Shown in pieces: positions 7,531-53,343 of a stretch of DNA of 64,000 bases. The position numbers and the translations under genes were made by a program. The notes beneath the pieces were generated by a model. The model ran no database searches, was not told the origin of the DNA, and worked only from the letters and a program-made list of their open reading frames with translations. Within the stretch, counting starts at the first letter, position 1; each line of letters opens with the position of its first letter. The stretch is taken from assembly GCA_963828305.1 (NCBI GenBank), contig CAWHEJ010000012.1, positions 117,129 through 181,128 of the forward strand, read 5' to 3'. Source of the DNA: an uncultured delta proteobacterium (GTDB lineage Bacteria; Desulfobacterota; Syntrophia; Syntrophales; UBA2192).

Positions 7531-7562
7531 TTGGGAAATTGGGTATTGGGATATTGGGGATT
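7531..7562. repeat. tandem 8-bp-period array TTGGGNNN x4
   Basis: ttgggaaa/ttgggtat/tgggatat/tggggatt lies immediately after the stop of the 5824..7530 ORF. Confidence 0.6.
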
Positions 7563-7602
7563 AGAAATCCGGAAGCCCGAGTCCCAAATTCCTTCTTTTC
7601 TT

Positions 7603-11383: not shown

Positions 11384-12302
11384 ATGTCCGAAGAAATGAT
11401 GAACACAAAGGGTGTGGCCGCCTATCTGGGCATCAACGAAAAACAGGTCTATGCCCTGATCAAGGCGGGACGGATCCCGGGGACCCGCGTCACGGGAAAG
11501 TGGGTCTTCCCGAAGAAGCTCATCGACGAGTGGATCGAGGAGGATGCCCGCGGCGGATTGCACCAGGCAAGGGAACGCAGCCGATCGATGGAGGGGGCGC
11601 TCCTGGCCTCGGGAAGCAACGACCCTGTTCTGGACTTCCTGCTCACCGGGATGAGGCATTCCCATCCCGACTTCTACTTCTTCTGCGCCAACACGGGAAG
11701 CACCGAGGGTCTGAAGGCACTCGGCGGCGGGTACACCGACATCGCCTGGACCCATCTCTTCGACCAGGAGAGCGGCCGTTATAACGTTCCCTTCATTCCG
11801 AAATACCTGCCCGACATGAAAGCCGTGCTGGTGCACCTCTTTCGCAGGGAGATCGGCATCGTCGCGGCACCCGGCAACCCCATGGGAATCGCCGGCATTG
11901 AGGACATCGCCGGCAAGAAGGTTCGATTCGTGAACCGCCAGGCCGGCTCGGGCACGAGGAGTGCTCCTGGATTACCATCTGAAAAACTCCGGCATCCCGT
12001 CCGATGCAATCACCGGTTACGACCGGGAGGTTTACACCCACGTCGAGGTCGGGCTCTCGATCCTCTCGGGTGAGGCCGACGCCGGCATCGCCACGGTGGC
12101 CGTCTCGAGGCTCATGGGACTTCACTTCGTCCCCGTGACGCAGGAAAATTTCGACATGGTCCTGGGGCAGTCCACCTATTTCAGCAAGGGCATCCAGGCC
12201 CTTGTGGAAGTTTTAAGATCCCCCGGTTTCCGGGAGCGTTTCGAGCGTCTCGGCGGCTACGGTTTCGAGGATTCGGGAAAGATCCTTTATTCGAACATCT
12301 GA
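11384..12302 (+). pseudogene. HTH (excisionase/MerR-like) plus periplasmic-binding-protein (TupA/ModA-like) domain regulator, apparent +1 frameshift at about 11959
   Basis: N-terminus MSEEMMNTKGVAAYLGINEKQVYALIKAGRIPG is followed by a PBP-like domain. Frame 11303 ends just after ...RQAGSGTR, and the protein continues as VLLDYHLKNSG... in frame 11961..12302. The extra A lies in context cgagg-A-gtg. Confidence 0.6.
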
Positions 12303-12314
12303 AGGAGGGAAAAT

Positions 12315-13175
12315 ATGAAAAAGTGGCTGTTACCGGTACTGTTGAGCTTCCTTTTCCTCGTACCCGGCCTTTGCTGGGCACAGAAAGGCGGCTTTGTCTT
12401 CATGGCGAGCACCATCGGCCCCATCGACTCGGGGAGTCGTGGGAGCCCTGGAGGATCAATTCGAGAAGGATACCGGCATCCGGGTCCGCCATGTCGGCGC
12501 AGGCACCGGGGCCGCCCTGAAGATCGCCGAGAAGGGAAACGTCGATCTCGTCATGGCCCACGCCAAATCCCTGGAGGAGAAATTCATCGCCGAGGGCTAC
12601 GGAACCGAACGGATCCCCCTGATGTACAACGACTTTGTCATCCTGGGCCCCGCGGCCGACCCCGCCGGGATCAGGGGGATGAAAACGGGTGCAGAGGCCC
12701 TGAAGGCGATCGCCGCCAAGCAGGCCCTCTTCATCACCCGCGGCGACAAGTCGGGAACCCATGTGGCCGAGATGGAGATCTGGGCAAAGGCCGGGATCAA
12801 GCCCGCCGGCCCATGGTACGTCACCTACGAGAAGGGCTCCCAAGGAAATGCACCCACGACCCGATTTGCCGATTCGAGAAGGGGGCCTATGTCTTCATGG
12901 ATCGGGCGACCTACCTGGCGCTCAAGAAGGAGATCAAGCTCGTCATCCTCGTGGAGAAGGACGAGGCCCTGCTGAATTACATATCCATCATCCCCGTGAA
13001 CCCGAAGAAGTTCCCCCGCGTGAACCATGCGGACACGATGACGTTCGTGAAATGGCTCACCGACCCCGCGAAGGGGCAGAAGATCATAGCCGATTTCGGC
13101 AAAGACAAATACGGCGCCCCCCTCTTCTTCGCCAACTCGAGGGAGTGGCAGGCCGCGCAGAAGAAAACGAAGTGA
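12315..13175 (+). pseudogene. tungstate ABC transporter substrate-binding protein TupA paralogue with two frameshifts
   Basis: Signal peptide and start are in frame 12315. The core (GVVGALEDQFEKDTGIRV...GDKSGTH) is in frame 12394. The C-terminus (EKGAYVFMDRATYLALKK...IIPVNPKKFP) returns to frame 12315. An extra A sits at about 12435 (context gggg-A-gtc) and a second indel at about 12860. Homologous along its length to the intact TupA at 13230. Confidence 0.6.
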
Positions 13176-13229
13176 GGAAGCGCGGGAGAGCGGAAAGAGA
13201 TTTGAAAATAACGTAAAAGGAGTGACGAT

Positions 13230-14087
13230 ATGAAACGAAAATTCGCCTCAATGATCATGTTTGCGATGTTGGCTGCCCTGTTTGTGTTTCCAGCAACGAC
13301 GGCGGCCCAGCCGGCCCAGAAAAACGTCATCCTGGCCACGACGACGAGCACCCAGGACTCGGGACTTCTCGACGTTCTCATCCCCATTTTCGAGAAAAAG
13401 ACGGGCTACTTCGTGAAAACGATCGCCGTGGGCTCCGGCCAGGCCATGGCCATGGGCGCCAAGGGCGAGGCCGATGTGCTGCTCGTCCACTCGCCCGCGG
13501 CGGAAAAGAAGTTCATGGCCGACGGCAACGGCGTCGAGCGCCGGCTCGTCATGCACAACGATTACATCATCCTGGGCCCCCCTGCCGACCCGGCCAGGAT
13601 CAAGGGAATGAAAAAGGCCTCCGAGGCCTTCAAAAAGATCGCCGCAACAGGCAGCATCTTCATGTCCCGCGGTGACAACTCGGGGACCCACGCCAAGGAG
13701 AAGGACATCTGGAAGGCCTCCGGCGTGAAGTTCGAAGGCGAGAAGTGGTACCAGCAGACAGGGCTCGGCATGGGGCAGACACTGGCCGTGGCGGCCGAGA
13801 AGAAAACCTACGTCCTCGCCGACCGCGGGACATATCTGGCCCTGAAGAAGAACCTCGGCCTCGACATTCTGGTCGAGGGCGACGGGATCCTGCTCAACAT
13901 TTACCACGTCATCGAGGTGAACCCGAAGAAGTGGCCCAAGGCAAACTTCACCGGCGCCAAGGCCTTCGGCGACTTCATGGTTTCCAGGGAAACACAGGAG
14001 ATTATCAAGACCTTCGGCGTCGAAAAGTACGGCTCGCCGCTCTTCTTCCCCGATGCCGGCAAGAAAGAGGAGGCCCTGGGCATCTAA
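13230..14087 (+). CDS. tupA: tungstate ABC transporter substrate-binding protein TupA
   Basis: Signal peptide plus TTTSTQDSGLLD, SRGDNSGTH and VIEVNPKKWP motifs typical of TupA/WtpA-like PBPs. RBS AGGAG lies 7 nt upstream. Confidence 0.8.
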   Translation: MKRKFASMIMFAMLAALFVFPATTAAQPAQKNVILATTTSTQDSGLLDVLIPIFEKKTGYFVKTIAVGSGQAMAMGAKGEADVLLVHSPAAEKKFMADGNGVERRLVMHNDYIILGPPADPARIKGMKKASEAFKKIAATGSIFMSRGDNSGTHAKEKDIWKASGVKFEGEKWYQQTGLGMGQTLAVAAEKKTYVLADRGTYLALKKNLGLDILVEGDGILLNIYHVIEVNPKKWPKANFTGAKAFGDFMVSRETQEIIKTFGVEKYGSPLFFPDAGKKEEALGI

Positions 14088-14786
14088 ATGGACATCATCC
14101 TTGAAGGCATCCGTCAGGCCTTCATCCTGCTTATCACCTTTGACCCCGAGGTCCTGGGGATCACGTGGTTTTCCCTGAAGGTCTCGGGCACGGCGACGTT
14201 TATCAGCCTTTTTATCGGGATGTCCGTGGGGACCGTGGTGGCCCTCACGCAGTTTCCGGGCCGCAGCTTCGTCGTGAGCCTCATCAACACGGGGATGGCC
14301 CTGCCTCCCGTGGTGGTGGGGCTCTTCGTCACCATCTTCTTGTGGCGAAACGGGCCCCTGGGCTTCCTGGAGATCCTCTACACGCCGGCGGCCATGATCC
14401 TCGCCCAGGCGATCATCGCCACCCCCATCGTGATGGGGATCTCTCTTGCGGCCATGCAGCAGTTGCCCAGGAAGCTGCGCCTGCAGATCCTGGCCCTGGG
14501 GGCCACGCGCCTGCAGATGGTCCGGATCCTCATCCGCGAGGCGAGGCTCCCCCTGCTGGCGGCCATCATGGCGGGCTTCGGCAGTGTCATCTCCGAGGTT
14601 GGCGCTTCCATCATGGTGGGCGGAAACATCAAGGGCTACACGCGCGTGCTCACGACGGCGACGGTGATGGAAACTAGCCGGGGCAACTTCGACATTGCCA
14701 TCGCCCTGGGGATCATCCTGCTTCTCTTTGCCTACCTCATCAATCTCGTCCTCACGACCGTCCAGCAGAGGGAGAGGCCGCGATGA
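14088..14786 (+). CDS. tupB: tungstate ABC transporter permease TupB
   Basis: 232 aa, multi-TM, with the ABC permease EAA-like loop (AAMQQLPRKLRLQILALGAT). The stop overlaps the tupC start. Confidence 0.8.
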   Translation: MDIILEGIRQAFILLITFDPEVLGITWFSLKVSGTATFISLFIGMSVGTVVALTQFPGRSFVVSLINTGMALPPVVVGLFVTIFLWRNGPLGFLEILYTPAAMILAQAIIATPIVMGISLAAMQQLPRKLRLQILALGATRLQMVRILIREARLPLLAAIMAGFGSVISEVGASIMVGGNIKGYTRVLTTATVMETSRGNFDIAIALGIILLLFAYLINLVLTTVQQRERPR

Positions 14787-29467: not shown

Positions 29468-29722
29468 ATGGTTTTCCTGGCCCTCCGGGCGGGCGATATG
29501 AGCGGAGCCCTTCTCTTCTTCGGCTTCGCGATGTTGCTTGGCCTTATCGCCTTCGCCTTGATCAGGCAATGGGATACGGGATGCGCGAGCGATGCCGACG
29601 GGGAAAAATCCCCCCCGCCCGCCCCGGTCCGGTTTGTCCCGCACCGTTTCATGATGGCCGCGTTGATCCTGACCGCCCTGGCCGTCCTGGCGGCCATCGT
29701 AATCCCCTTCATTACGCGCTAG
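29468..29722 (+). CDS. small two-TM membrane protein, hypothetical
   Basis: Two hydrophobic helices. Weak support. Confidence 0.3.
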   Translation: MVFLALRAGDMSGALLFFGFAMLLGLIAFALIRQWDTGCASDADGEKSPPPAPVRFVPHRFMMAALILTALAVLAAIVIPFITR

Positions 29723-29887
29723 GCAGCCCGGTCCGAACACAGATCGGAAACGATCCCTTCGAAGAGATCCCCGACCGCCCTGCTGCCGTGCACGTTTAGT
29801 TTTTCTCTTTCTTTTCAAATGCTTCTTCGGTATGCTTTCCATCGAGGGCTGCAAAGGACAAACGACATCATCCAAGGAGGGGGAAAG

Positions 29888-30355
29888 ATGAAAAAAGTCG
29901 GGTTCACACTTGGGTTGGTTGTGGCATTTTGCCTGGTGTTCTCGTCGGCCTGGGCGGCAAGTCCGGACGACATCATAGGGAAATGGCTGAACGGGAAACA
30001 GACAGCCCACGTGGAGATCTACAAGGCCGACGGGAAGTACCACGGAAAGATCGTCTGGCTGAAGGAGCCCGTTTACCCCGCCGATGACAAGAAAGGCATG
30101 GCGGGAAAGCAGAAGGTGGACCGTGAAAACCCGGATGCTGCAAAGCGCAACCAACCCATCCTGGGCCTGGCCATTCTCCGGGATTTCGTTTTCGTGAAGG
30201 ACGGCCTCTGGGAAAACGGGATGATCTACGACCCGGAAAACGGCAAGGACTACAAGTGCAAGATGACCCTGGAATCACCGGACGTGCTCAATGTCCGCGG
30301 CTACATCGGCATCTCCCTTCTCGGCCGGACGGATACGTGGACGAGGGTTAAATAG
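29888..30355 (+). CDS. DUF2147 domain secreted protein
   Basis: Signal peptide plus the IIGKWLNGKQTAHVEIYKADGKYHGKIVW motif typical of DUF2147. RBS AGGAGG. Confidence 0.7.
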   Translation: MKKVGFTLGLVVAFCLVFSSAWAASPDDIIGKWLNGKQTAHVEIYKADGKYHGKIVWLKEPVYPADDKKGMAGKQKVDRENPDAAKRNQPILGLAILRDFVFVKDGLWENGMIYDPENGKDYKCKMTLESPDVLNVRGYIGISLLGRTDTWTRVK

Positions 30356-30361
30356 CACAGG

Positions 30362-30388
30362 ATCGAGGTTCGAGGAACGAGGTTAAGG
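30362..30388. repeat. tandem heptamer array CGAGGWW x3 (GGA-rich)
   Basis: cgaggtt cgaggaa cgaggtt aaggaaa. The core cgaggaacgagg also occurs at 57662. Confidence 0.55.
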
Positions 30389-30390
30389 AA

Positions 30391-30456
30391 AAAAGAAATC
30401 CCCCTTACATCCCCCTTTCATAAAGGGGGAAAAGAGGGGGATTTTTTATTGCCTGA
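30391..30456. repeat. 66-bp two-tier palindromic element, copy 1 (terminator-like hairpin plus T-run)
   Basis: aaaagaaatcccccttacatccccctttcataaagggggaaaagagggggattttttattgcctg has outer stem aaatccccct/agggggattt and inner stem cccccttt/aaaggggg. Confidence 0.8.
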
Positions 30457-31043
30457 ATCCCGAATCCTCACGCGCAAATGACAGACCGTGGGTGTCAACC
30501 CGGGCATTAACTTCTTCCTGCATCCGATAAACATCACTTTTCGCATTATGGCGGATTACAATCGGCAATACTGGCCGCTCCCTTCAATTTCCCCAAAAAA
30601 AAACACAAGATTCAGCTGAAAATGTCGAAAAGGATAGATGAAGACTTATCGTAATGGCCGCAATAGTCGAAGAGGTTGCCGAACTCATTCTCTGGCTGAT
30701 TTCGGCTTTCTCTCTGCCTAGACGGGCGAAATAGTCTTATTTGTCGTGACGCCAGGAAAACACAAACCAAGATGGGATCTTTATACGACATACTCTCCGG
30801 TCCGGTTTGGGCTCTTCTCAGACATCAGTTTTTGGATCGGCATGGCTTTCCGGGTTGTGATGCTTGTCGCGCTCTATGAGCGATTGCTTGAGTGATGGAA
30901 TAATACAGAGAACGTATAACCGGCACGTCCAGCGAAGCCGCGAGAGACGCGTCTCGGTGACGCCGGTGTTGGGCTTTCAATCTCGCTGGAGCAAGTACTC
31001 TAAGCCCAAAGGGCATTGAGAATACACAAGAAGGAGAACTACA

Positions 31044-32957
31044 TTGATAACAGGAATGATAGCATTGATTGCTGCAGGTATCGTTGTTATTGGTGTCCTG
31101 CTGCTTATCCTTGGCGGTTTTTGTTTGATTGGCCCCAATCAAGTCGGCATCCTTACGAAAAACATGTTTGGCAAAAAAATGCCTGAAGGACAAATCATCG
31201 CGCGTAACGGGGAAATAGGGGTTCAGGCGAGGACTTTGATGCCGGGGCTCTATTGGAGGATGCCTGTAATCTGGTCATTTGCCAAAGTTCCGGTAGTGGC
31301 GGTAGATATTGACAGTATCGGCATCGTCGAATCTATTGACGGCGAACCACTCCCCAAAGGGAGAGTGTTGGCCGACGAAGTCGAGTGTAATCAATTTCAA
31401 GATGCAGAGATGTTCTTAGCCAATCATGGAAAAAAGGGGCCGCAGGTCGGAATTCTGCGTCCAGGCACCTACCGGATCAATTCCAGACTGTTCAATATTA
31501 CCGCAGCTCCCGCGGTGAAAATAGATGAGAATACGGTTGGTATCGCCGTTGCCAAGGATGGGATTCCCTTGCCGACTGGCTATGTCATCGCCCCGAAGGC
31601 TCAAAATAATGACGGCACCGAAGCAGACCACAAGGCGTATCAAAATGGGCAGCTCTTTATCGACAGCAAAGGGTACCGGGGACCGCAGTTGGATACCCTG
31701 CAGCCGGGAATCTACTTCATCAATCCGAACTTATTTGACATTAAGATTGAAACGGTTGCAGAGGTCCTTCCAGGATACGTGGCGGTAATCAGGTCCAACG
31801 TGGGATTGGAGTTGGAGAGGACATCCGAGGGGCCAGATAAAACTTCCGGTGAAGGAAGACTGGGAGGTCCGATCCATGAAGATGTTGAGAAAATACTGAT
31901 CACCAATAAATATACTCGCGGCATTTGGAGAGAGCCGATCGCGCCAGGGAAATACAATCTGAATACGATTGCTTTCTCTGTCTATCAAGTGCCTACTTCC
32001 GCCGTCACCATCGATTGGGCAAGCGAGGGAAGAATCGGGACAGAGGTAAAGGGAGTTAAACCGACGGAGGCTAAGGCCGCGGGGGTACTGTACAGTTTTG
32101 ATCCCTTGAAGGTGACTTCTAAAGACGGCTTTCAATTGGAAGTCAATGTTCGAATGGTGATTCGAGTTCAGCCGGGCAATGCGGCCTACATCATAGCCCG
32201 GTTCGGGTCCGTGGCCAATCTGATCGATCAAATCGTCCATCCGCTGATCGATTCGTCTTTCAGGAATAAAGCCGGCGAGAAGAAAGCGATTGACTTTTTC
32301 CAAAGCCGGACGGACTTGCAGACCGAAGCACTGGCACACGCCAAAGAAAGATTTTCCGAATACAACGTAGAGGCTCAAAACCTGCTCATTGCCTATATCG
32401 ATATCCCGAAGGATTTGTTGGATACTCAAACCAAGAAGGAGATTGCCAATCAGCAGCAAGCCCAGTATGACCAGGAGGCACTGGCCCAGGAAAAACGCAT
32501 TGCGGTCATGGAGAAATCGTCTCGGGCGGATAAACAGAAAGATGTTATTGATGCCAAATTATCTATCGACATCAATAATGATCGGGCTGAGGCCAAAGTG
32601 AAGGAAGCTGACGGGAACAGGCGCTCTGTGATTCTTCAAGCTCAAGGGACAAAAGACTCCACAATCCTGATGGCTCAAGGGACTAAAGAATCTACCATAC
32701 TGGTGGCCGATGGCAATTCTTACAAAAGCAAGATTGAGGGCGACGGTGTTGCCGCTGCCTACATTGCCCAGAAGGAGGCCATTGGTCAGCAGAATGTAGC
32801 GATCATCAAACTCATTCAGGAAATAGCGGCCGGTAAGATTCAGATTGTGCCCCAGGTTCTGGTTGGGGGTGGGGAGGGCTCGGCGAGCGGCAACCTGTTC
32901 AATGCGTGGTTATCTCAAATGATTTCTCAAAACGCACCGAAAAATGAGGGAAAATAG
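31044..32957 (+). CDS. flotillin/SPFH (band-7) family protein, YqiK-like, N-terminal TM anchor
   Basis: TTG start 7 nt after AAGGAG. The N-terminal TM helix is followed by an SPFH-like region and a long Ala/Glu/Gln-rich coiled coil (EALAQEKRIA...). The gene is about 48% GC against about 64% in its surroundings. Confidence 0.7.
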   Translation: MITGMIALIAAGIVVIGVLLLILGGFCLIGPNQVGILTKNMFGKKMPEGQIIARNGEIGVQARTLMPGLYWRMPVIWSFAKVPVVAVDIDSIGIVESIDGEPLPKGRVLADEVECNQFQDAEMFLANHGKKGPQVGILRPGTYRINSRLFNITAAPAVKIDENTVGIAVAKDGIPLPTGYVIAPKAQNNDGTEADHKAYQNGQLFIDSKGYRGPQLDTLQPGIYFINPNLFDIKIETVAEVLPGYVAVIRSNVGLELERTSEGPDKTSGEGRLGGPIHEDVEKILITNKYTRGIWREPIAPGKYNLNTIAFSVYQVPTSAVTIDWASEGRIGTEVKGVKPTEAKAAGVLYSFDPLKVTSKDGFQLEVNVRMVIRVQPGNAAYIIARFGSVANLIDQIVHPLIDSSFRNKAGEKKAIDFFQSRTDLQTEALAHAKERFSEYNVEAQNLLIAYIDIPKDLLDTQTKKEIANQQQAQYDQEALAQEKRIAVMEKSSRADKQKDVIDAKLSIDINNDRAEAKVKEADGNRRSVILQAQGTKDSTILMAQGTKESTILVADGNSYKSKIEGDGVAAAYIAQKEAIGQQNVAIIKLIQEIAAGKIQIVPQVLVGGGEGSASGNLFNAWLSQMISQNAPKNEGK

Positions 32958-32970
32958 ACAACAGCGACTG

Positions 32971-33036
32971 AAAAGAAAATCCCCCTTGCAGCCCCCTTTC
33001 ATAAAGGGGGCTGCAAGGGGGATTTTTTATTGCCTG
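32971..33036. repeat. 66-bp two-tier palindromic element, copy 2 (about 90% identical to copy 1)
   Basis: aaaagaaaatcccccttgcagccccctttcataaagggggctgcaagggggattttttattgcctg. Confidence 0.8.
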
Positions 33037-33054
33037 TGCCCTTTACCCTGGACC

Positions 33055-33705
33055 CTAGTCTGAGACGACTTCTGGGCGCATGGACACGATCGCCGTCCTG
33101 CCTTCCTTCGGTTCGCTGCCGTACTGCTTGTACAGGGCCAGGACACGCTTGACGTAGCCCTTCGTTTCCGCGTAGGGAGGGATGCCGCCGTATCTGGCCA
33201 CGGCCTTTTCGCCCGCGTTGTAGGCTGCAAGGGCAAGGGGAAGGTGGCCGTTGTAAACGTTCATGAGATAGCGCAGGTACTTGACGCCGCCTTCGATGTT
33301 GGACTCGGGTTCGAAGCTGTCCTTCACCTGCAGGGTCGAGGCGGTCTTCGGCATGAGCTGCATGAGGCCCTGGGCGCCCTTGGGCGAGACGGCCTTGTGG
33401 TTGAAGTTGGACTCGGCCTTAATGACGGCCTTGACGAGGGAGTAATCGACCTTGTACTTGTCGGAGGCCTTCTGGATCAAGGGCCCGTATTTCGTCATGT
33501 CGATGCCGGCCTTGATGATCACCCGCCGCTCCTTGATCCAGAGCTTGTAATCGGGGCTGGTGGGCAGGTTGGTGATGTGCATGACCCCTTTCTCGTCCGT
33601 GTAACGGTAGATGTCGGCATGGGCCGGCACAGCCGGGAAAAGGACGCCAAGCGTCAACATCCCGAGCACGACGGCAACGAAAACGGGCTTTGCATAGGGG
33701 TTCAT
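33055..33705 (-). CDS. lytic transglycosylase domain protein (Slt/MltE family), secreted
   Basis: Signal peptide MNPYAKPVFVAVVLGMLTLGVLFPAVPAHA and catalytic motif AVIKAESNFNHKAVSPKGAQGLMQLMP. Upstream ATGs at 33798 and 33828 are alternatives. Confidence 0.7.
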   Translation of the reverse strand: MNPYAKPVFVAVVLGMLTLGVLFPAVPAHADIYRYTDEKGVMHITNLPTSPDYKLWIKERRVIIKAGIDMTKYGPLIQKASDKYKVDYSLVKAVIKAESNFNHKAVSPKGAQGLMQLMPKTASTLQVKDSFEPESNIEGGVKYLRYLMNVYNGHLPLALAAYNAGEKAVARYGGIPPYAETKGYVKRVLALYKQYGSEPKEGRTAIVSMRPEVVSD

Positions 33706-34063
33706 ATACGGCACCGACGGGTCATCGAATTCTACCCAGGCGATTCTTCTATCAAAATTATGGGTTGGGAGAAAGCGGAAACTTTCCCGGCCCATCATGC
33801 CTGAAAAGAGCTTCAAGAACCATACCACCTCTATTTCCTATCGGCATCGCCCGCCATAACCTGAGCCTCAGCCGCGCAATCCGATGGACCGTCCGGGGAC
33901 GCCTGGGGAGTTTTGGCCCTACATCCCGGGGCAGACCGGCCCTGACTCGACGACAATCTAAATTTTCCTAATGATATTGAATAAGTTACCGATAATTAAC
34001 TTCAGGGGCCGGTCGAGGCCCGATGGAAAACGGCCCGCCAACAGCGACCCCCAAGGAGCGGTG

Positions 34064-36572: not shown

Positions 36573-36690
36573 GAGGTAGCCTCGCTAGGTTTCGCTGGTG
36601 AAGGAGAATAGGACAACCGATGGACAACACATTATTCATATAATAAAATAATCGGGCCGCGCAACAGAATAACACAGGCGGGATCGAATC

Positions 36691-37513: not shown

Positions 37514-39166
37514 ATGAACACCTTCAAGCAGGCCGCCGTGAAGATATACAACGACGCAAAGAAAGAGAAGCGCCTCACCGAGGGCCGCACCCTCGATGAG
37601 CTCAAGCGCATCGCCCTGCGCCATGAGGGCGTGATCCAGACGCAGGCCGGCTCGGTTGCCGCCGACTCGGAACCCATGAGCCGCTCGGCCCCCCACACCC
37701 GCAACAACATCGATCACGCCTTCGGCGAGCCTGAGGAGAAGCTCGCGCATCAGGCCGTGGAGCGCCTCTCGAAAGAAAAGATCGTCTGCCTCGACACGAT
37801 GGTGGGCGACGGCCGCGATGGGGTCACGGCGCGGTTCATCATGCCCGAGCAGTACGCCCAGATCGCTTACGGGCTCAAGCTGCTCATGGACTACCCCGCA
37901 GCGAGGGTCGTCGAGGAGCCCACCTACACGATCATTTTCTTCACCGACGAGGCTTTCGAGCCGAACAAGAAAAAGAAGCTCCTGGACAAGGACATCACCG
38001 TGCGCCTCTGGATGGGCGAGAAGCGGGGCGAGCAGGTCAAGATCTGCCGCAACACCGTCTACCTCGGTGAGGGGAAAAAGGGCGTCTTCATGTTCGAGGA
38101 CTGGCGCGTGAAGGCCATCGACAGGACGGGCATCTTCCTTCACGCCGGCGCCCGGAGGGACTGGCTCTGGATCCACGACCTCGAGACGGACAGGCCGGAG
38201 CTGACGGAAGTCGTCACGGCCATCTCGGGGCTCACGGCCACCGGGAAAACGACGACGCTGTGCCGCCGTCTTGCCCGCCTGCCCCGGGAGACCTCCGAGA
38301 TGATCGGCGACGACGGCGGGGCCTTCGCCTTCGACGGCGGCTATGCCGCCTACGAGATCGGCGGGCTCTACGTAAAGACGGAAGGCCTTGACCAGAGCCA
38401 GCCCGAGATCCTCCGGGCGGCCGAGTCGAGGGACGCCTTCCTGGAAAACGTGGCCGTCACGAAGTACCCCTACATGCCGGACTTCAAGGACACCCGCAAG
38501 ACCGGCAACGGCCGGGCCATCGTGACACGGGAGAAGCTCGAGATCGCAAGCCCCGGGCTTCGCGCCGACCGGCTGCACTACATCGTCATGCTCACGCGAA
38601 ACCCTCTGGCCAATGTGATCAGCAAGCTCACGCCCGAGCAGGCCACCATGCAGTTCATCTATGGCGAGTCCATCGAGAGCTCAGGCGGCAACCCCGAGGA
38701 GGCGGGCAGGTTCAAGCGCGAGTTCTTCCTCGACCCCTTCGTGGCGGGCGACCGGCTCGAGCACGCTATGATCTTCTACGAAATCCTCCGGAAGAGCCGC
38801 ATCAAGTGCTACCTGGCCAACACGGGGACCATCGGCCAGGACGAGCAGAAGGTGACGCTGAGGCAGTCGCTGGCGACCTACAACGACTTGCTTCGCTACC
38901 AGCTCCGCTTCAGCTACGAACCGGACTACCTCGGGCTGCACTACCCGATCAAGTGCGACCGGGCAAATCTCGATTTCATGATCGCCCACCGCCTCTTCCC
39001 CGACAAAGAGCTGCTCAAGAAGAAGCTCAGCGATTTCTTCCGCGGCCGCGAGCAGTACCTGGAGGCCTTCGAAGGCAAATACGGGAAGATCCCCGAGGCG
39101 ATCCGCGAGTCCGTCCCCTACCGCTACCGCGACATCAACGACAGCGAGAGGATCATGGCGGAATAG
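37514..39166 (+). CDS. phosphoenolpyruvate carboxykinase (ATP)-family protein, divergent
   Basis: Kinase-1a-like GLTATGKTTTL, FDGGYAAYEIGGLYVKTEGL (compare hDEWgW..GvFNfEGGCYAKt), and CYLANTGTIG (compare LVNTGWnG). 551 aa. Confidence 0.6.
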   Translation: MNTFKQAAVKIYNDAKKEKRLTEGRTLDELKRIALRHEGVIQTQAGSVAADSEPMSRSAPHTRNNIDHAFGEPEEKLAHQAVERLSKEKIVCLDTMVGDGRDGVTARFIMPEQYAQIAYGLKLLMDYPAARVVEEPTYTIIFFTDEAFEPNKKKKLLDKDITVRLWMGEKRGEQVKICRNTVYLGEGKKGVFMFEDWRVKAIDRTGIFLHAGARRDWLWIHDLETDRPELTEVVTAISGLTATGKTTTLCRRLARLPRETSEMIGDDGGAFAFDGGYAAYEIGGLYVKTEGLDQSQPEILRAAESRDAFLENVAVTKYPYMPDFKDTRKTGNGRAIVTREKLEIASPGLRADRLHYIVMLTRNPLANVISKLTPEQATMQFIYGESIESSGGNPEEAGRFKREFFLDPFVAGDRLEHAMIFYEILRKSRIKCYLANTGTIGQDEQKVTLRQSLATYNDLLRYQLRFSYEPDYLGLHYPIKCDRANLDFMIAHRLFPDKELLKKKLSDFFRGREQYLEAFEGKYGKIPEAIRESVPYRYRDINDSERIMAE

Positions 39167-39265
39167 CGATCAATGAACAATCCTGTCATTCCCGCGGAGG
39201 CGGGAATCCAGAAAAGATTGGATGCCGGATCAGGTCCGGCATGACATATTCACACAACAAATCGA

Positions 39266-39297
39266 AGCCGCCCCTCGTTTCGAGCGGGCGGCTTTTC
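39266..39297 (+). terminator. rho-independent terminator candidate after the PEPCK-like gene
   Basis: agccgccc-ctcgtttcgag-cgggcggc followed by ttttcatt. Confidence 0.5.
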
Positions 39298-39312
39298 ATT
39301 ACACGATCCGGT

Positions 39313-39356
39313 GATTGCCTCTAACGCAGAATAACACGACTGCCCCCAACTGCACC
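39313..39356. repeat. 44-bp direct repeat, copy A (partner at 40669..40710)
   Basis: gattgcctctaacgcagaataacacgactgcccccaactgcacc is about 80% identical to copy B. It shares cagaataacac with 36664. Confidence 0.65.
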
Positions 39357-39497
39357 CCAGGAGCGCCCAGGCCGCGCCTTTCACCTGTTTATCCTCAAAC
39401 TTCCATAATGTTGAAGTGTGACGATTACGTAAAGTAAGGTTCGATTTCTCATGAACTTTCGGCGATCGTATTTTCCGCTCGCTCTCACGTGGCACTC

Positions 39498-40250
39498 TCA
39501 TATCAGCCCTAATTTCCGTCCGAGGGAGAACCCGAGTTTTTCCAGCCGTCTCATGTACCAGTAGGTCCCCGCATTGTCGAGTGAGTCGAGTGATGCAATC
39601 AGATCGGTAAGGTAATCCCCCATGTGAGAGAAGTAGTCAAGCTCCCTGCGCTTCGTGAAATACGGACCGGAAAAAAGCCGCATCAAATCACGCAGAGCGA
39701 TGATCCCTCCCCTTTTTTCCTTGTTGAATTCTCCCCACTTGCGAAGATGTTCTTCCGACCGGAAGAAGTGCATCGTGCTTCACGAGTAGGGTACGTTGAG
39801 CATCCACCTTCCGATGGGTACGGAGACATGGCCAATCAACCCTTTCGGCTCCTCCGTCTCGATCTTGCCGTCCTTCACCTCCACTCTTATGGGCTCGCCA
39901 CAATCAAGACACACTGAATCGATACGCACCGTCTTCCCCGGAAAAAGCCAGCAGACCGCCAGCGATTCAAACGCTCACTGGCCGAACCATTTCTGAATGC
40001 CATCGATAGTCAAACGGTAATGTGTTGGGAGATTGTTGAAGGGTGCGAAAGACACGATATTGTCGGTTTTCGGGTAAAGCCACCCCGGAAAGCCGAGGGT
40101 CGAAAAGAGCTTGCGGAGTGTATTCCTGCCTTTCTCGGGCGACACACCCAGCGCGGCTGCTATCTCTGTGTAGTGCGGCGCTTGTCCGGTTGCAATCATC
40201 TTTTCGATGATAATGTGAAACGTCTGATCCAGTTCACTTGGCGTTGACAT
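39498..40250 (-). CDS. organomercurial-lyase (MerB)-like protein with two in-frame TGA codons at the positions of the MerB catalytic cysteines; candidate selenoprotein
   Basis: Three same-frame segments (40250..39978, 39974..39783, 39779..39498) are separated only by TGA at 39975..39977 and 39780..39782. Each nucleotide was hand-verified, and there are no other stops. Context ...KWFGQ-U-AFESLAV... matches MerB YAWC96ALD99TL, and ...PYS-U-STMHFFRS... matches MerB FC159CHVHFFAS. Strong SD AGGAGGT lies 6 nt upstream of ATG 40250. Hairpin UUCUUCC-GGUC-GGAAGAA starts 13 nt after the second UGA. Confidence 0.7.
39750..39767 (-). promoter_or_regulatory. SECIS-like stem-loop downstream of the second in-frame UGA
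   Basis: The perfect palindrome ttcttccgaccggaagaa forms a 7-bp stem with apical loop GGUC, 12 nt after UGA 39780..39782. Spacing is typical of bacterial SECIS. Confidence 0.45.
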
Positions 40251-40668
40251 GTCTTTACCTCCTTTTTCACAGGCAGGTGAATGCATGAATTTGTTTTATG
40301 CAAAAATAGATATTCTGAGTCTCGTAAAACGTGATTCCCCACAGAGGTATGGTAACCGCCATGGAAGCCGTAATATCGGCACCAGCCGATAACTCCTTTT
40401 CACGGCGGACTCCAGAAGGTAAAGGGGAAGGTTGATGGGTTTATTGAGCTAATAAGAGAAACGACGATTGATGAATGCTCTTATGAGAAGGTAAAGTCAA
40501 AAGAAAAATAGTCTCGGTTCTGAGCCCAAATTGAAGATACAGGGTTGTAAAAATTCGATTATTGGGAAAACCAACAGTTCCGTCAGGAAGGATTACTGTC
40601 TGAAAGGGTTATCTTTTGCAGAATTGCCGGACGCTTTGTTACAGGAAGAAGTAGATGCCCGCCCCCAT

Positions 40669-40710
40669 TATTGCCTATCACGCATAATAACGTGACTCTC
40701 CCCAACTGCC
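40669..40710. repeat. 44-bp direct repeat, copy B
   Basis: tattgcctatcacgcataataacgtgactctccccaactgcc. Confidence 0.65.
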
Positions 40711-40814
40711 AATCTGATGGTGACAAACCGGGTCATCTGCCATAAAATGGATACGCTGACTGTTTCGTATGGAGTCTCGAAAGATGGTATAATGAGTTGG
40801 TCGGAAGGAGCTGC

Positions 40815-41243
40815 ATGATGCTCGAGGAAACAACCCTGTCCAGAAAAGAGATGCGGGGCAAACGCAAGCCGTCGATGCTGATTCTTGGCAGCTTCGAGAA
40901 GCTGAAGCAGGATCTGATCCCCGCGCTTTTCCGCATCGCCGGCGATCATGGGATCGGGCATATCGACATCAAACCGTCGACGGAGGCTGTCGATGTGAAG
41001 CAGCTCAAGGGATACACCCTGGTCTTTGTGGCTTTCGAGATTTACAGAGACAATGAATCCTTCTTCCGCTTGCTGCCGGAATCCATCCAGGAACGGATCA
41101 CCATCCTGTCAAGGCCCGCAGACTTCCCTTCCGTGGCCCCGGATATCAAATGCGCATGCTACTGCTCTGAGTTGAAGGCTCTCCTGCCCAGGGAAGAGGC
41201 GCAACTCTTCGACCACCACACCGAGTCCCCTAAGCCCCGATAG
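40815..41243 (+). CDS. hypothetical protein (142 aa)
   Basis: ATGATG preceded by GGAAGGAG. No recognisable domain. The segment is AT-richer than its surroundings. Confidence 0.45.
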   Translation: MMLEETTLSRKEMRGKRKPSMLILGSFEKLKQDLIPALFRIAGDHGIGHIDIKPSTEAVDVKQLKGYTLVFVAFEIYRDNESFFRLLPESIQERITILSRPADFPSVAPDIKCACYCSELKALLPREEAQLFDHHTESPKPR

Positions 41244-41319
41244 CGTAAAGTTCGAGCAGGACCCCGATTAATTCTCACGCAAATCCAAATCTGCAAATGT
41301 GAAGGGATGCCCCTGGTTT

Positions 41320-41673
41320 CTATACTTCGACCAGGACCTTGAATCCGCCGTATACCATCCGCTTGATGTCGAAGGGCATCTCCTTCATATCGCCCATTTT
41401 TTCCATTTCTTTCATCACCTTTGCATTGACGCGATCGCGATGTGCCCGCGACTTGAATACGATATACGAGAAAACCACGGTTTCGCCGGGCTTCAACTTC
41501 ATCAGGCGCGAAAATGGCATCCCCCACTTGGTCTTTAAGTCCTCACCGACGCATTCCTTGTAATCAAGGGCACCGTGTTTCATCCATATCTTTGCTCCCA
41601 TCCTGGCCATGCGTGCATAGGTTTTCAGGTTTTTCTTCGGGATAGGTAAAACGTATCCATCAACGTATCTCAT
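41320..41673 (-). CDS. DUF1428 family protein
   Basis: MRYVDGYVLPIPKKNLKTYARMARMGAKIWMKHGALDYKECVGEDL is typical of DUF1428 (YbaA-like). RBS AAGGAGGT lies 5 nt upstream of 41673. Confidence 0.7.
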   Translation of the reverse strand: MRYVDGYVLPIPKKNLKTYARMARMGAKIWMKHGALDYKECVGEDLKTKWGMPFSRLMKLKPGETVVFSYIVFKSRAHRDRVNAKVMKEMEKMGDMKEMPFDIKRMVYGGFKVLVEV

Positions 41674-42123
41674 CGTAACCTCCTTTTGCGTCAATGATGA
41701 AGTTGTCACGGCTATAGGCTTAATCGCTGTTCTACGAACGTTAGAAATGAGGTAGTTGGATTGACGGGACGACAGACGGGAACATCTACAAACTCATTTG
41801 TAAATACGTCCATACTGAAGGGCAGTCAAGAGCAATCGTAATGATGACATGCATTTGAAATGTGAGAGGGCGGTATTTCTTTACACCATCGGGTCTTATT
41901 CGAGAGTCATTGTCCGTGATTTATTTGCGGGAGTTATTATAGACATCTGAGAGTAAACATATGTCAATGTTCAAGGCTGATGCCGCTTTTACAATGCACG
42001 CAGCTCATGCAAAGCCAAATCTGCAAATGTGAGGGGCGTCCCCGATTTTCCACTCTTGAGGGTTAGGAGGTTATGTTCAGCGTCTAGGTTCGCCAGCATT
42101 CTATCCAGATAAATGCTTCATCC

Positions 42124-42576
42124 TTAATCGGGTACGTTACGCGGGAGCGGTTGCCCCTTCTTAACAATTTCCACCGCTTGTGCGAACCTCTTATGATAAG
42201 TACCTTCTGTCAGGGTCGTTGCAATGTTCACCGTGACTCTTCGTTTTGTGACAACGGTGACTTTTGTGTTCTTCTTATCAACGGGCTCAATCCACGCCCC
42301 CATAACGGCTCCCCATGAAACCAGATTCATTCCACTGCTGGTCAGCATGTAACCCTGATCCCTGTGCTCTTCAATTGCATCGGAGCCCTCCCACCGGAAC
42401 ACGGTTTTTGAGATTTCCCATGCTTGATCGACATTAACAGGGTAAACCTTTGTTGTGCCTTCCGACCCGTCCTCCTTGACCCGCACCACATCGTTCATCG
42501 TGGCACATCCACTAAGCAGCGCAACAAATGACAAGAAAATGATCCATGCCAAGACCCTGCATCCCTTTTCCTTCAT
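42124..42576 (-). CDS. hypothetical lipoprotein
   Basis: Lipobox LLSGC after an N-terminal hydrophobic segment. 150 aa. Confidence 0.6.
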   Translation of the reverse strand: MKEKGCRVLAWIIFLSFVALLSGCATMNDVVRVKEDGSEGTTKVYPVNVDQAWEISKTVFRWEGSDAIEEHRDQGYMLTSSGMNLVSWGAVMGAWIEPVDKKNTKVTVVTKRRVTVNIATTLTEGTYHKRFAQAVEIVKKGQPLPRNVPD

Positions 42577-42781
42577 GTGCCGACCCCCTTATTGGTATTT
42601 GCCATAAAAAACCGGACTTACCAAAGATTTAGCTTCAGCAGTCCGGTTGATACACGCATTTCAACTACCATACTCCGCATCCCGCGTTCACAGGTGTGGC
42701 TATGTAAAAATGTTCTTTGCTCATTAATGAATTGACTCATAAAACTCGATGAAGCCGGATCAGGCACCCGATTGTACTGCA

Positions 42782-43960
42782 TCAAAGATATGAGAGCCAC
42801 CAATCGTGACGCCGAGCCTTGACTCCCGCGAACCATGCACAGGCGGGGTACATGGTAACAACGGTGAGCAACCACACGATATAGACGCCGCCGAGTGAAA
42901 GCCCGAAGTTTGGTGGAGTCTCAAGAAAGACAACGGCCATCTCGCGCAGAGTGAATCCCTGCCAAAGCCCGATGGAAACGGCGATCGCGTGAATGAGGTA
43001 AAGATGGAGGATATAGTAGAAAAATGACACCCGCCCGATAGTCACCAGGATTGTGACGGCTTTCCCCGTTAGCCGCTCGAACCATCCGAGCAGCATGAGT
43101 GCGGGCCCCAGCGTCATAAGCAGGAACTGCAGGGAAACGGGATACTTCGTGACATTGAGAAAGCTGATAATCGTTGCAGCCGTGTTCTGCTGTGGCGCCC
43201 AAACCGCCGGGTCGCCGTAGAGATTTGTCAGGCGAAGCAGGAGGAACGAGAGCGTCAGGACTGCACCGGTGAGCAGGAGACGCCCGGGGCGCTCAGGGTT
43301 GGGGCCCACAAAATAGGGGCCTATCGCGTAACCGAGTGCCATGACGCCGATCCACGGAATCAGCGGGTAGATAATGAATGCCACAGGCGTGCCGCCAACC
43401 TCGAGAGTCCCGGGGATGTGCAGAATAATCCACAGGGGCGAAGCCTCGGAGAGCACCGGCTGAATGCCGTCCAGTCCATTATGCGCAGCGATCATCACCA
43501 CGCCGAAACCCGCGATGGCAGCCCGGGGCAACCAGACGAGAGCGGAGAGCGCGATCATCGACCACCCGATTGCCCAGATCACCTGCAGCAAGAGCTTTGA
43601 GTGCAGGTTGAAGGACCAGGCGAATCCGATGACGGTCAATTCGAGGAAAACAAGCCACACACCGCGGCTTGCCAAAAAGCGCGTGACCTCGCCCGTGGAC
43701 CGTTGCCGGGTCGCGCCGTACATGAACGCGCTCACACCCGCGAGCAGCACGAAGGTCGGCGCGCAAAAATTCGTGATCCAGCGGGTGAAAAACAACGCAC
43801 CTGCCGAACCGGCGAAATCCACCGCTGCCGAATAATTGGCACTCTGCGGGTGTGTCACCATGTCGCGCACGTGGTCGAGCGCCATGATGACCAGGACGAC
43901 GCCGCGCAACATGTCGATCGAGGTGAGACGATTTCTGCGAGCCGGCGCTTCTACGCCCAT
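42782..43960 (-). CDS. DUF1624/acyltransferase-family integral membrane protein (heparan-alpha-glucosaminide N-acetyltransferase-like)
   Basis: RLTSIDMLRGVVLVIMALDHVRD N-terminal motif and about 10 TM segments. Confidence 0.6.
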   Translation of the reverse strand: MGVEAPARRNRLTSIDMLRGVVLVIMALDHVRDMVTHPQSANYSAAVDFAGSAGALFFTRWITNFCAPTFVLLAGVSAFMYGATRQRSTGEVTRFLASRGVWLVFLELTVIGFAWSFNLHSKLLLQVIWAIGWSMIALSALVWLPRAAIAGFGVVMIAAHNGLDGIQPVLSEASPLWIILHIPGTLEVGGTPVAFIIYPLIPWIGVMALGYAIGPYFVGPNPERPGRLLLTGAVLTLSFLLLRLTNLYGDPAVWAPQQNTAATIISFLNVTKYPVSLQFLLMTLGPALMLLGWFERLTGKAVTILVTIGRVSFFYYILHLYLIHAIAVSIGLWQGFTLREMAVVFLETPPNFGLSLGGVYIVWLLTVVTMYPACAWFAGVKARRHDWWLSYL

Positions 43961-44271
43961 TCAGTCATGTTCTCCCTATCTCTGCAAAATAGCGCCCGTA
44001 TTTGAACGGATCCTGACCCGAAAGGTCTTCACGAATAGCGTCGTTACCTGGGGTCGTGTCTTGCATTTCAACTTCTCCATCCTCTCCCGGAAAGCTCAAA
44101 ATGCAAAAGACCCCGCTCTCTTCCGAGGTACGGGGTCTGTTAACTCATTGTACTCCTCCCTAGGAGGGTTCGGAGGTTATGTTGGGTTATGCCTGCTTCA
44201 TTTCATCCGGTGCATTTGTAAACGGATTATCCATCCATTTCAAGAGCTTTGTTTATGGGTACCCGCTTGTT

Positions 44272-53174: not shown

Positions 53175-53299
53175 ATCGAAAAGGACTTTGATTTCGAATC
53201 CTGTTTGTGATGTACTGAAAACAAGTTAAGGCTCTCCCGATAAAGCCAAACCCTTCGCAAGGAGGGGACGGAAAGCGGCGGGTCTTGGAACGAAGATGG

Positions 53300-53343
53300 C
53301 CGAGCTGCCGGAGGAGAACCCTTCGGTGCGCTCGGTTTTTTTA
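53300..53343 (+). terminator. rho-independent terminator candidate after tkt
   Basis: Stem ccgagc/gctcgg encloses an inner hairpin and is followed by ttttttatt. Confidence 0.45.

Follow-up and report, generated by a model that had tools for sequence, protein, structure and literature searches.

Layout of the low-GC stretch

The 64-kb window analyzed here (64,000 nucleotides of contig CAWHEJ010000012.1, from an uncultured bacterium of the Syntrophales; all positions are those of this window) carries a low-GC stretch between its PEPCK and RecQ genes, and in that stretch a MerB-like gene with two in-frame TGA codons lies between two 40-nt direct repeats. An earlier note on this DNA had described 39170 to 42780 as a low-GC accessory stretch, possibly acquired by site-specific insertion; the observation is confirmed, and the interpretation is partly supported. 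The GC content is 44 to 54% in 500-nt windows from 39001 to 43000 and about 57 to 69% in most of the 64 kb. The GC content at third codon positions (GC3) is 0.57 to 0.63 in pieces of the MerB-like frame, 0.64 in the DUF1428 gene, and 0.56 in a lipoprotein gene, while most Pfam-supported genes of the window fall between 0.75 and 0.91; a gene for a 142-residue hypothetical protein (0.75) and an acyltransferase gene (0.73) are near the host range. The tetranucleotide profile is atypical in two stretches, 29.5 to 34 kb and 39 to 43.5 kb, with robust z scores of up to 7.7. Composition supports a foreign origin of the MerB-like insert. The gene content was also as first described: a MerB family gene (PF03243), a 142-codon open reading frame (ORF) with no Pfam match, a DUF1428 gene (PF07237), and a 150-codon ORF, which begins with a lipoprotein-type signal ending in LLSGC.

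The direct repeats are real. The two copies, at 39314 to 39353 and 40670 to 40709, lie on the same strand 1,356 nt apart and agree at 33 of 40 positions (83%), with a longest perfect run of 10 nt. A degenerate consensus of the 40-mer found these two copies alone in the 64 kb and none in 100 shuffled sequences. A shared 11-mer upstream of the methyltransferase gene, previously noted at 36664, is a chance match: 1.4 such matches are expected in the window when all 11-mers of both copies and both strands are considered (probability of at least one, about 0.75), and nothing further around the match at 36665 (CAGAATAACAC) resembles the repeat. We rejected it as a third copy. Moreover, the 40-mer had no match in JGI metagenome contigs or in IMG/VR, and nhmmer detected it in five sublineages only, always at the PEPCK/142-residue locus. 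With two copies in 64 kb and none in those collections, the idea of a common genome-wide or promoter motif was discarded as well.

The low-GC stretch is a mosaic rather than one island. The 142-residue gene adjoins the PEPCK gene in all close relatives and is core, and the DUF1428 segment and the lipoprotein/acyltransferase segment each have their own pair of direct repeats, so that 39.2 to 42.8 kb is not the single accessory unit it had been taken for. The earlier note mentions neither pair. The first of them is a repeat that we call D1 (core, AATCTGCAAATGTGAGGGGCGTCCCCTATTTTCC), which follows the 142-residue gene in most relatives examined and was not found in loci L003 or L175; the second is a 20-mer whose copies at 42058 and 44164 agree at 19 of 20 positions. 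At least three small insertions thus surround one core gene. The interval from the 142-residue gene to RecQ is as variable among relatives as the junction between the PEPCK and 142-residue genes. We conclude that the PEPCK-RecQ interval is a recombination hotspot in a Syntrophaceae chromosome and that the 142-residue gene is the sole conserved gene within it.

Empty and differently loaded sites in relatives

The 65 loci returned by a scan with the PEPCK protein, one genome per species, come without exception from uncultured members of the Syntrophaceae, Syntrophales, and related lineages, which places the window in this group; gene order was compared by tblastn of ten window proteins against them. 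The closest relatives (PEPCK, 91 to 96% identical) keep the LEA2, beta-CASP, methyltransferase, and PEPCK genes in this order, followed, where the contig reaches, by the 142-residue and RecQ genes. By the same tblastn comparison, they have no MerB-like, DUF1428, lipoprotein, or acyltransferase gene at the locus. One of them, L005 (Syntrophaceae UBA2192), is an empty site with the flanks of the window and a single 40-mer (L005 positions 6922 to 6961). Its left flank after PEPCK is the terminator hairpin of the window (GCCGCCCCTCGTTTCGAGCGGGCGGC) followed by TTCATTACACGATCCGGT; its right flank (beginning CAATCTGATGGTGACAAACC), the TGGTATAAT box, and the 142-residue gene are 92.7% identical to the window over 647 nt. 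The earlier note had proposed looking for a relative that lacks 39357 to 40668 and keeps one repeat, and L005 fits exactly. Because L005 has the same flanks and a single 40-mer, the roughly 1,356 bp of the MerB-like segment (39354 to 40669) form an insertion/excision unit relative to the empty site. The same occupied structure is found in L001, a 98%-identical strain from an independent assembly, and the structure is therefore not an assembly artifact.

The empty site also bears on how the junctions were formed. The L005 40-mer equals copy 1 at positions 1 to 15 and copy 2, with one mismatch, at positions 16 to 40, a pattern that a reciprocal crossover inside ACGCA (positions 11 to 15) would give in either direction. 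Six of the seven variable positions fit a single switch within positions 11 to 15 and one does not, and the numbers are small; the host-type and insert-type halves are seen again in L004 and L147. Because it is based on just seven variable positions, the hybrid-junction pattern is suggestive, and it is the flank identities that are the hard evidence.

Different cargo is found between the same ends. In L004, site A (14681 to 14720) is followed by a left end about 85% identical to window 39354 to 39394, an OmpA-like lipoprotein gene on the minus strand, about 430 nt of noncoding DNA, a right end matching window 40642 to 40669, site B, the right flank of the host as in the window, and a second, truncated copy of the 142-residue gene. 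Joined as right end, site, and left end, the junctions reconstructed for the window and for L004 span about 108 nt and are about 87% identical, and the DNA between the insert ends is unrelated. In the L147-L155 group, a response regulator gene and a histidine kinase gene, both on the minus strand, lie between the same ends. The insertion relative to an empty site and the sharing of insert ends are thus matters of direct observation. The MerB module itself (39491 to 40507) recurs at 95.8% identity in L067, flanked there by unrelated high-GC genes.

The junction between PEPCK and the 142-residue gene is empty in L002, in the primary copy of L004, and in L171 and L172; L003 has a small unrelated gene there, and L157 has a chemoreceptor block flanked by a duplication of about 150 bp of the PEPCK 3' end. 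The further relatives of the 142-residue gene, L171 to L175, have no 40-mer. In L175, the hotspot holds a DDE transposase gene, two adjacent Phage_integrase family genes, and a second copy of the 142-residue gene (6225 to 7589 and 12209 to 14183); neither the 40-mer nor D1 is present in L175, and its integrases are unlinked to either. Partial duplications of host genes lie at insert borders in L147 (5660 to 5850), L004 (16232 to 16405, 52 codons), and L157 (1395 to 1545 and 3920 to 4070), and they look like traces of single-crossover integrations.

Within the cassette, divergence between the window and L001 is mosaic. The flanks at 40200 to 42000 are identical, the coding part of the MerB-like gene (39500 to 40200) differs by about 5%, and the spacer from PEPCK to the site shows many changes and a 31-nt insertion/deletion at 39282. 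Recent import of the L001 allele from an L067-type allele was considered and rejected, as the two are 95% identical, the same as for the window allele.

The MerB-like gene and its in-frame UGA codons

The cargo had been taken for an ordinary MerB-like gene, and its two in-frame TGA codons, predicted to encode selenocysteine (Sec), had been missed. Translation of 39498 to 40286 on the minus strand gives one frame with two TGAs (...KWFGQ*AFESLAV... and ...NVPYS*STMHFFRSEEH..., with an asterisk at each TGA). The Pfam MerB model (PF03243) matches residues 73 to 192, across both TGAs, with 81.3 bits against a cutoff of 27 (E = 7.7e-23). When aligned by phmmer with solved MerB structures, TGA 1 falls on Cys96 (awCALD), TGA 2 falls on Cys159 (sfCshvHFF), and Glu95 falls on Asp99. 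An AlphaFold2 model of P0025, a homolog with Cys at both sites that is 54% identical to the window protein, had a predicted local distance difference test score (pLDDT) of 92.5 and a predicted template modeling score (pTM) of 0.87. Its sole significant PDB matches (E of 1e-3 or less) were MerB and MerB2 (E = 3e-10 to 4e-7; probability, 1.0), with template modeling scores of 0.56 to 0.69 normalized to the target over about 200 of 239 residues, and it has an extra helical C-terminal region of about 40 to 60 residues beyond the MerB match. The Pfam score and the fold modeled for this homolog both place the protein in the MerB superfamily.

Both TGA codons are conserved. At the DNA level, TGA stands at both sites in all 80 of the best metagenome relatives (55 to 94% amino acid identity), or 81 of 81 with the window, and 77 to 94 more open codons follow the second TGA in those 80; the relatives were chosen by similarity to a Sec/Sec query, and the count is no measure of class proportions. 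Among the 120 best database homologs, 42 are full length and show Trp at both sites, the result of gene calls on short contigs that translated TGA with code 4; in about 71, site 1 is Cys and the protein ends 63 to 66 residues later, at or just before site 2; and 2 have Cys at both sites. The genome of a Candidatus Sulfotelmatobacter, a metagenome-assembled genome (L167, 4001 to 4705), has the Cys/Sec form, in which site 1 is TGC and site 2 is TGA, and is annotated as ORFs of 155 and 76 residues. Family members in public databases appear in the same way, as truncated proteins of about 155 residues called organomercurial lyase or hypothetical and a separate ORF of about 76 residues.

A hairpin that resembles a selenocysteine insertion sequence (SECIS) follows each TGA, and both hairpins are under constraint. 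Hairpin 1 has G-U pairs in its stem and three outer pairs. Standard pairs occupy 99.8% (hairpin 1) and 98.7% (hairpin 2) of alignment cells, among 70 and 67 distinct sequences, respectively, and only 29 to 68% when the partners are slid by one to three columns as a control. The closing pair of hairpin 2 covaries (UA, 34; CG, 19; UG, 9), and all changes in hairpin 1 are one-sided with pairing kept. The strongest argument for SECIS hairpins is synonymous constraint. In 75 sequences, codon entropy is 1.5 to 2.1 bits at four- to sixfold-degenerate codons elsewhere in the gene, and it collapses only at codons +4 to +9 after TGA 1 (TCG, 73/74; GTC, 71/75; TGC, 70/70) and +5 to +9 after TGA 2 (TTC, 74/75; CGG, 74/74; TCG, 73/73; GAA, 72/75). 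Natural controls agree with this: L167 lacks the hairpin after its Cys codon and has one after its TGA, and in the Cys/Cys gene L170 both hairpins are missing while L-F-R-S is kept as CUC UUU CGA UCG.

Around the gene, the flanking ORFs of the 80 loci were clustered, and only clade-specific neighbors were found, with no recurrent partner of the MerB-like gene. An 18-bp palindrome (TATCGGCACCAGCCGATA) at 40374 to 40391, in the 5' region, is kept in L067 with one loop base different and is possibly an operator. A read-through scan for other selenoprotein genes in the window gave nothing convincing and is too noisy in high-GC DNA.

How the segment may have arrived and how the gene may be read

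We favor, at roughly three chances in four, a reading in which the locus is a hotspot mosaic and the MerB-like segment is an integrated cassette that carries an intact gene for a two-Sec carbon-metal lyase of the MerB superfamily. The equivalents of the MerB residues Cys96 and Cys159 would be encoded by UGA and read as Sec92 and Sec157, and decoding would be directed by two separate SECIS hairpins within the coding sequence, each with a GGUC loop about 21 to 26 nt after its UGA. Sec insertion at codons 92 and 157 in this organism is what the sequence suggests. The enzyme may then follow a MerB-like mechanism, with two soft-metal ligands and a carboxylate proton donor (Glu95 in place of Asp99) acting in carbon-metal protonolysis; its substrate would be an organomercurial or another soft-metal organometallic compound.

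Most likely, incoming DNA, probably circular, carried a site similar to a 40-bp chromosomal site upstream of the 142-residue gene, and recombination between the two left hybrid attL- and attR-like copies of the 40-mer, by a conservative site-specific reaction whose recombinase would be encoded elsewhere in the genome. Of the earlier proposal of site-specific insertion, then, the insertion part stands on the empty site, and the site-specific part is an inference. Gain here is favored over loss from L005 because of the foreign composition of the insert and the presence of the MerB module in the unrelated context of L067.

Several observations weigh against parts of this reading. Four Pfam batches, run over the 40 window ORFs picked by a crude gene call, revealed no integrase, transposase, or other recombinase, and none was found in the insert. 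The reconstructed junction has no attC-like or strong hairpin. The window and L005 differ by about 7%, and ordinary divergence of this kind could yield part of the hybrid 40-mer pattern; recombination between the repeats could have removed the cassette from L005; and the host duplications of 150 to 190 bp at other hotspot inserts (L157, L147, and L004) look Campbell type. As for the gene, an Rfam scan of 39.0 to 44.4 kb in E-value mode matched no SECIS family, its only hit being a subthreshold FtrB match on the hairpins after the PEPCK gene; the minimum-free-energy fold of the single sequence differs from hairpin 1; and selA, selB, selC, and selD are not in the 64-kb window. Deltaproteobacteria are generally rich in selenoproteins (PMC9312934). 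Finally, there are no mer genes among the window ORFs and no conserved neighbors that point to function.

The strongest rival concerns the mechanism of entry. RecA-dependent recombination, Campbell type or homology facilitated, could have made the same insertion, with the 40-mer and the shared ends being leftover homology from exchanges between strains. Such a history would suit the arbitrary stretches of host DNA duplicated at other inserts (in L157, about 150 bp from the 3' end of PEPCK together with hairpins; in L147, about 190 bp from the 3' end of PEPCK; and in L004, 156 bp from the 5' end of the 142-residue gene), as well as the absence of a recombinase from the scanned ORFs and the use of three different repeat families (40-mer, D1, and 20-mer) around three neighboring segments. 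RecA has minimal homology requirements that make two 83%-identical 40-mers a very poor substrate, however, and the copies share no perfect run longer than 10 nt. Moreover, three different cargos agree in their ends, in their junction of about 108 nt, and in their orientation, as a specific site predicts. On these grounds, we give a dedicated site-specific reaction with the enzyme acting in trans about even odds, and we regard homology-driven recombination as possible but the less probable of the two.

A second rival, raised in the earlier note, is that the repeats are a duplicated promoter or operator; on this view, which we extend to an ancestral arrangement, a regulatory motif is used twice and the repeats are no scars of recombination. 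The right copy does contain, on the minus strand, hexamers that match the sigma-70 consensus at 10 of 12 positions and point at the MerB-like gene, and the 40-mer site lies about 100 nt upstream of the TGGTATAAT box of the 142-residue gene. The left copy, however, has a poor -35 hexamer and no downstream gene on either strand, and the motif occurs nowhere else in the 64 kb or in the JGI metagenome and viral collections. This rival is already contradicted by the empty site, since L005 has one copy and identical flanks and nothing of the intervening segment. A duplicated promoter is thus not needed to explain the repeats, and we consider it very improbable.

Weakest of all is the notion that two nonsense mutations have made the gene a pseudogene or that TGA is reassigned to Trp or Gly (codes 4 and 25): a standard gene caller does split the frame into ORFs of 91 and 103 residues, and public relatives are translated with Trp at both sites, but TGA falls in the same two columns of an open frame in every one of 80 relatives, the most distant of them 55% identical, coincides with two catalytic cysteines for which the alternative in homologs is Cys and not Trp, and is alone in being accompanied by GGUC-loop hairpins. 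A reassigned code is excluded because TGA is the commonest ordinary stop in the window, ending 19 of 40 Pfam-supported genes. We find this rival scarcely credible.

Other classes of mobile element were also considered. An integron gene cassette was rejected, as the junction has no attC-type palindrome and no pair of core sites (GTTRRRY/RYYYAAC) and no intI gene was found among the scanned ORFs. A transposon or insertion sequence was rejected because the insert ends share no inverted repeat, the duplication measures 40 nt and is imperfect, and no transposase was found among the scanned ORFs. A dif/Xer-type site was dropped, as the resemblance seen by eye is partial (ACGCATAA...TAACAT) and in the wrong arrangement. 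No tRNA or tmRNA gene that could serve as an integration target is present in the 64-kb window.

Why the locus matters lies more in its cargo than in its mobility. The island is an ordinary hotspot with small acquired segments, and its unusual feature is that the cassette-like units share their ends and have no recombinase linked to them; occupied, empty, and differently loaded sites are all available for comparing the exchange of single-gene cassettes. The cargo gene is the unexpected and more valuable result. If read as proposed, its product would be one of few prokaryotic proteins with more than one Sec, with both metal-ligand cysteines replaced, and the natural Sec/Sec, Cys/Sec, and Cys/Cys variants would allow selenium and sulfur to be compared in carbon-metal cleavage. 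Surveys of merB in anoxic environments miscount the family because its database entries are truncated or mistranslated. To our knowledge, the enzymes of mer-independent methylmercury degradation in anaerobes have not been established, and the family is a concrete, expressible candidate. We tentatively suggest, as a doubtful extension, that there is an environmentally widespread, stand-alone clade of two-Sec MerB proteins (Sec92, Glu95, and Sec157), tied neither to mer operons nor to the SAO locus, in anaerobes such as Syntrophales and in metagenomes, with the Cys/Sec form of Candidatus Sulfotelmatobacter included, which may cleave methylmercury or other organometallic compounds independently of mer in anoxic sediments and which here would travel on a cassette that moves via a lineage-specific site of about 108 bp.

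Features of the MerB-like segment and the neighboring mosaic (window positions)
Feature	Position	Strand	Remark
40-nt junction repeat, left copy (attL-like)	39314..39353	+	Left half appears host type, right half insert type
Conserved left end of insert	39354..39394	+	Same ~41 nt in L004 insert, partly in L147
MerB superfamily gene	39498..40250	-	250 codons plus stop; predicted Sec92 and Sec157; AAGGAGG Shine-Dalgarno 7 nt before ATG at 40250
SECIS-like hairpin 2	39750..39767	-	7-bp stem UUCUUCC/GGAAGAA; loop GGUC at +23 to +26 from U of UGA
In-frame UGA 2, codon 157	39780..39782	-	Aligns with MerB catalytic Cys159; Y-S-U-S-T
SECIS-like hairpin 1	39942..39968	-	Core stem GCUGGC/GCUGGC (39947-39963); loop GGUCU at +21 to +25 from U of UGA
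In-frame UGA 1, codon 92	39975..39977	-	Aligns with MerB catalytic Cys96; U-A-F-E versus MerB C-x-x-D
5' noncoding region traveling with MerB-like gene	40251..40507	-	Within 39491-40507, 95.8% identical to L067
Conserved right end of insert, GGAAGAAGTAGATGCCCGCCCCCATT	40642..40669	+	Same end in L004 and L147 inserts
40-nt junction repeat, right copy (attR-like)	40670..40709	+	Minus strand plus 3 nt of host flank reads TTGGCA-17 nt-TATTAT
142-residue conserved hypothetical gene	40815..41243	+	Syntrophaceae specific; core, hotspot anchor, outside any insert
D1 repeat, copy 1	41274..41327	+	Overlaps DUF1428 stop codon
DUF1428 gene	41320..41673	-	Cargo of 730-bp segment between D1 copies
D1 repeat, copy 2	42004..42057	+	
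20-mer repeat, copy 1	42058..42077	+	Pair brackets lipoprotein and acyltransferase genes
150-residue lipoprotein gene	42124..42576	-	GC3 0.56; absent from relatives
Membrane acyltransferase-like gene (HGSNAT_cat/Acyl_transf_3)	42782..43960	-	Absent from relatives at locus
20-mer repeat, copy 2	44164..44183	+	In conserved block downstream of RecQ

Other repeats and elements were noted nearby. D1 recurs at gene boundaries in the variable region only, where it brackets single minus-strand genes (DUF1428 here and a CMD-domain gene in L147); copies stand at 2551, 6460, 9533, 10367, and 11006 in L147 and at 12168 and 13527 (inverted) in L002. It possibly serves as a terminator, as a recombination site, or as both, and neither its core nor the right end of the insert had a match in IMG/VR. 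A 63-nt double-hairpin element (GTCATTCCCGCGGAGGCGGGAATCC...GATGCCGGATCAGGTCCGGCATGAC) occurs once in the window, after the PEPCK gene (39185 to 39245), and three times in L157 (1427 to 1489, 3952 to 4014, and 8906 to 8966, the last inverted); it has the look of a small dispersed repeat. Between the RecQ stop and the acyltransferase start lies a block of about 230 nt (44043 to 44271) that is about 82% conserved in L002 and L004 and contains a minus-strand terminator (44129 to 44110); it may be a RecQ 3' untranslated region or a small RNA.

Farther away, the second atypical stretch (29500 to 34000; GC content, 47 to 51%; tetranucleotide z, up to 6.6) holds a gene for a 637-residue SPFH/Band 7 protein (31044 to 32957; GC3, 0.55) and is possibly another acquired segment. 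The sole Rfam match in the window at gathering thresholds is a cyclic di-GMP riboswitch aptamer (c-di-GMP-I-GGC, RF03167) at 53236 to 53313 on the plus strand (70 bits; gathering score, 59), which lies immediately upstream of a GMC-oxidoreductase-like ORF.

Comparison with known systems

As a mobile unit, the segment resembles cis-mobilizable (CIME-type) and integrative mobilizable elements and integron cassettes: it is a small, mostly single-gene insert between direct repeats that may be hybrid junctions, an empty site exists in a relative, and different cargo is found between the same ends in constant orientation. It differs from them in that no integrase was found nearby among the scanned ORFs, the site is not at a tRNA gene, there is no attC, and the site is so far restricted to one locus.

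As predicted decoding signals, the two hairpins resemble the SECIS of Escherichia coli fdhF in lying inside the coding sequence directly 3' of the UGA, in having a GGUC(U) apical loop, and in placing the loop G and U about 22 to 25 nt from the U of the UGA; the corresponding loop bases of fdhF are G23 and U24. Unlike the fdhF type, two independent elements are predicted in one 750-nt gene, and neither matches an Rfam model.

The protein itself shares its fold and three active-site positions with MerB of plasmid R831b (PDB 3F0O, 3F0P, and 3F2F) and with MerB2 (5C17). Identity to MerB is only about 20%, however, and Cys/Asp/Cys of MerB is predicted to be Sec/Glu/Sec here, a set that is chemically analogous to the defining residues of MerB and not identical with them. 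The merR, merA, merT, and merP genes of the MerB operon context are not near the window gene. Moreover, scores with the NCBIfam MerB models are below the cutoff (NF009710, 52.3 bits against 193; NF033555, 46.4 against 200), as is the score with the model for SaoL (NF040728, 47.8 against 140).

SaoL is the nearest precedent for Sec in this superfamily. It is a MerB-like PF03243 selenoprotein of about 213 residues whose single Sec stands in a Cys-Sec (CU) dipeptide at the position of Cys159, with Cys and Asp kept at the Cys96 and Asp99 positions; it is encoded in a nine-gene SAO locus, occurs in anaerobes that include Deltaproteobacteria, and is routinely truncated at the UGA in databases (Haft and Gwadz 2022, bioRxiv 10.1101/2022.07.06.499078). 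Two reviews name SaoL as the sole MerB-like selenoprotein, with one Sec; the one of May 2026 counts 119 selenoprotein families or subfamilies, nearly all with one Sec. No description of a two-Sec MerB relative was found in the searchable literature, and one may exist elsewhere. Like SaoL, the window protein belongs to the MerB superfamily and has a predicted Sec at the Cys159-equivalent position. Unlike SaoL, it has two predicted Sec residues, no CU dipeptide, Glu for Asp, and a length of 250 residues, and its neighbors are the PEPCK and 142-residue genes, with no ABC transporter or SaoC- or SaoE-like gene. Thus, the window protein is best called an apparently undescribed subfamily of the MerB superfamily with a predicted two-Sec active site, distinct both from MerB proper and from SaoL.

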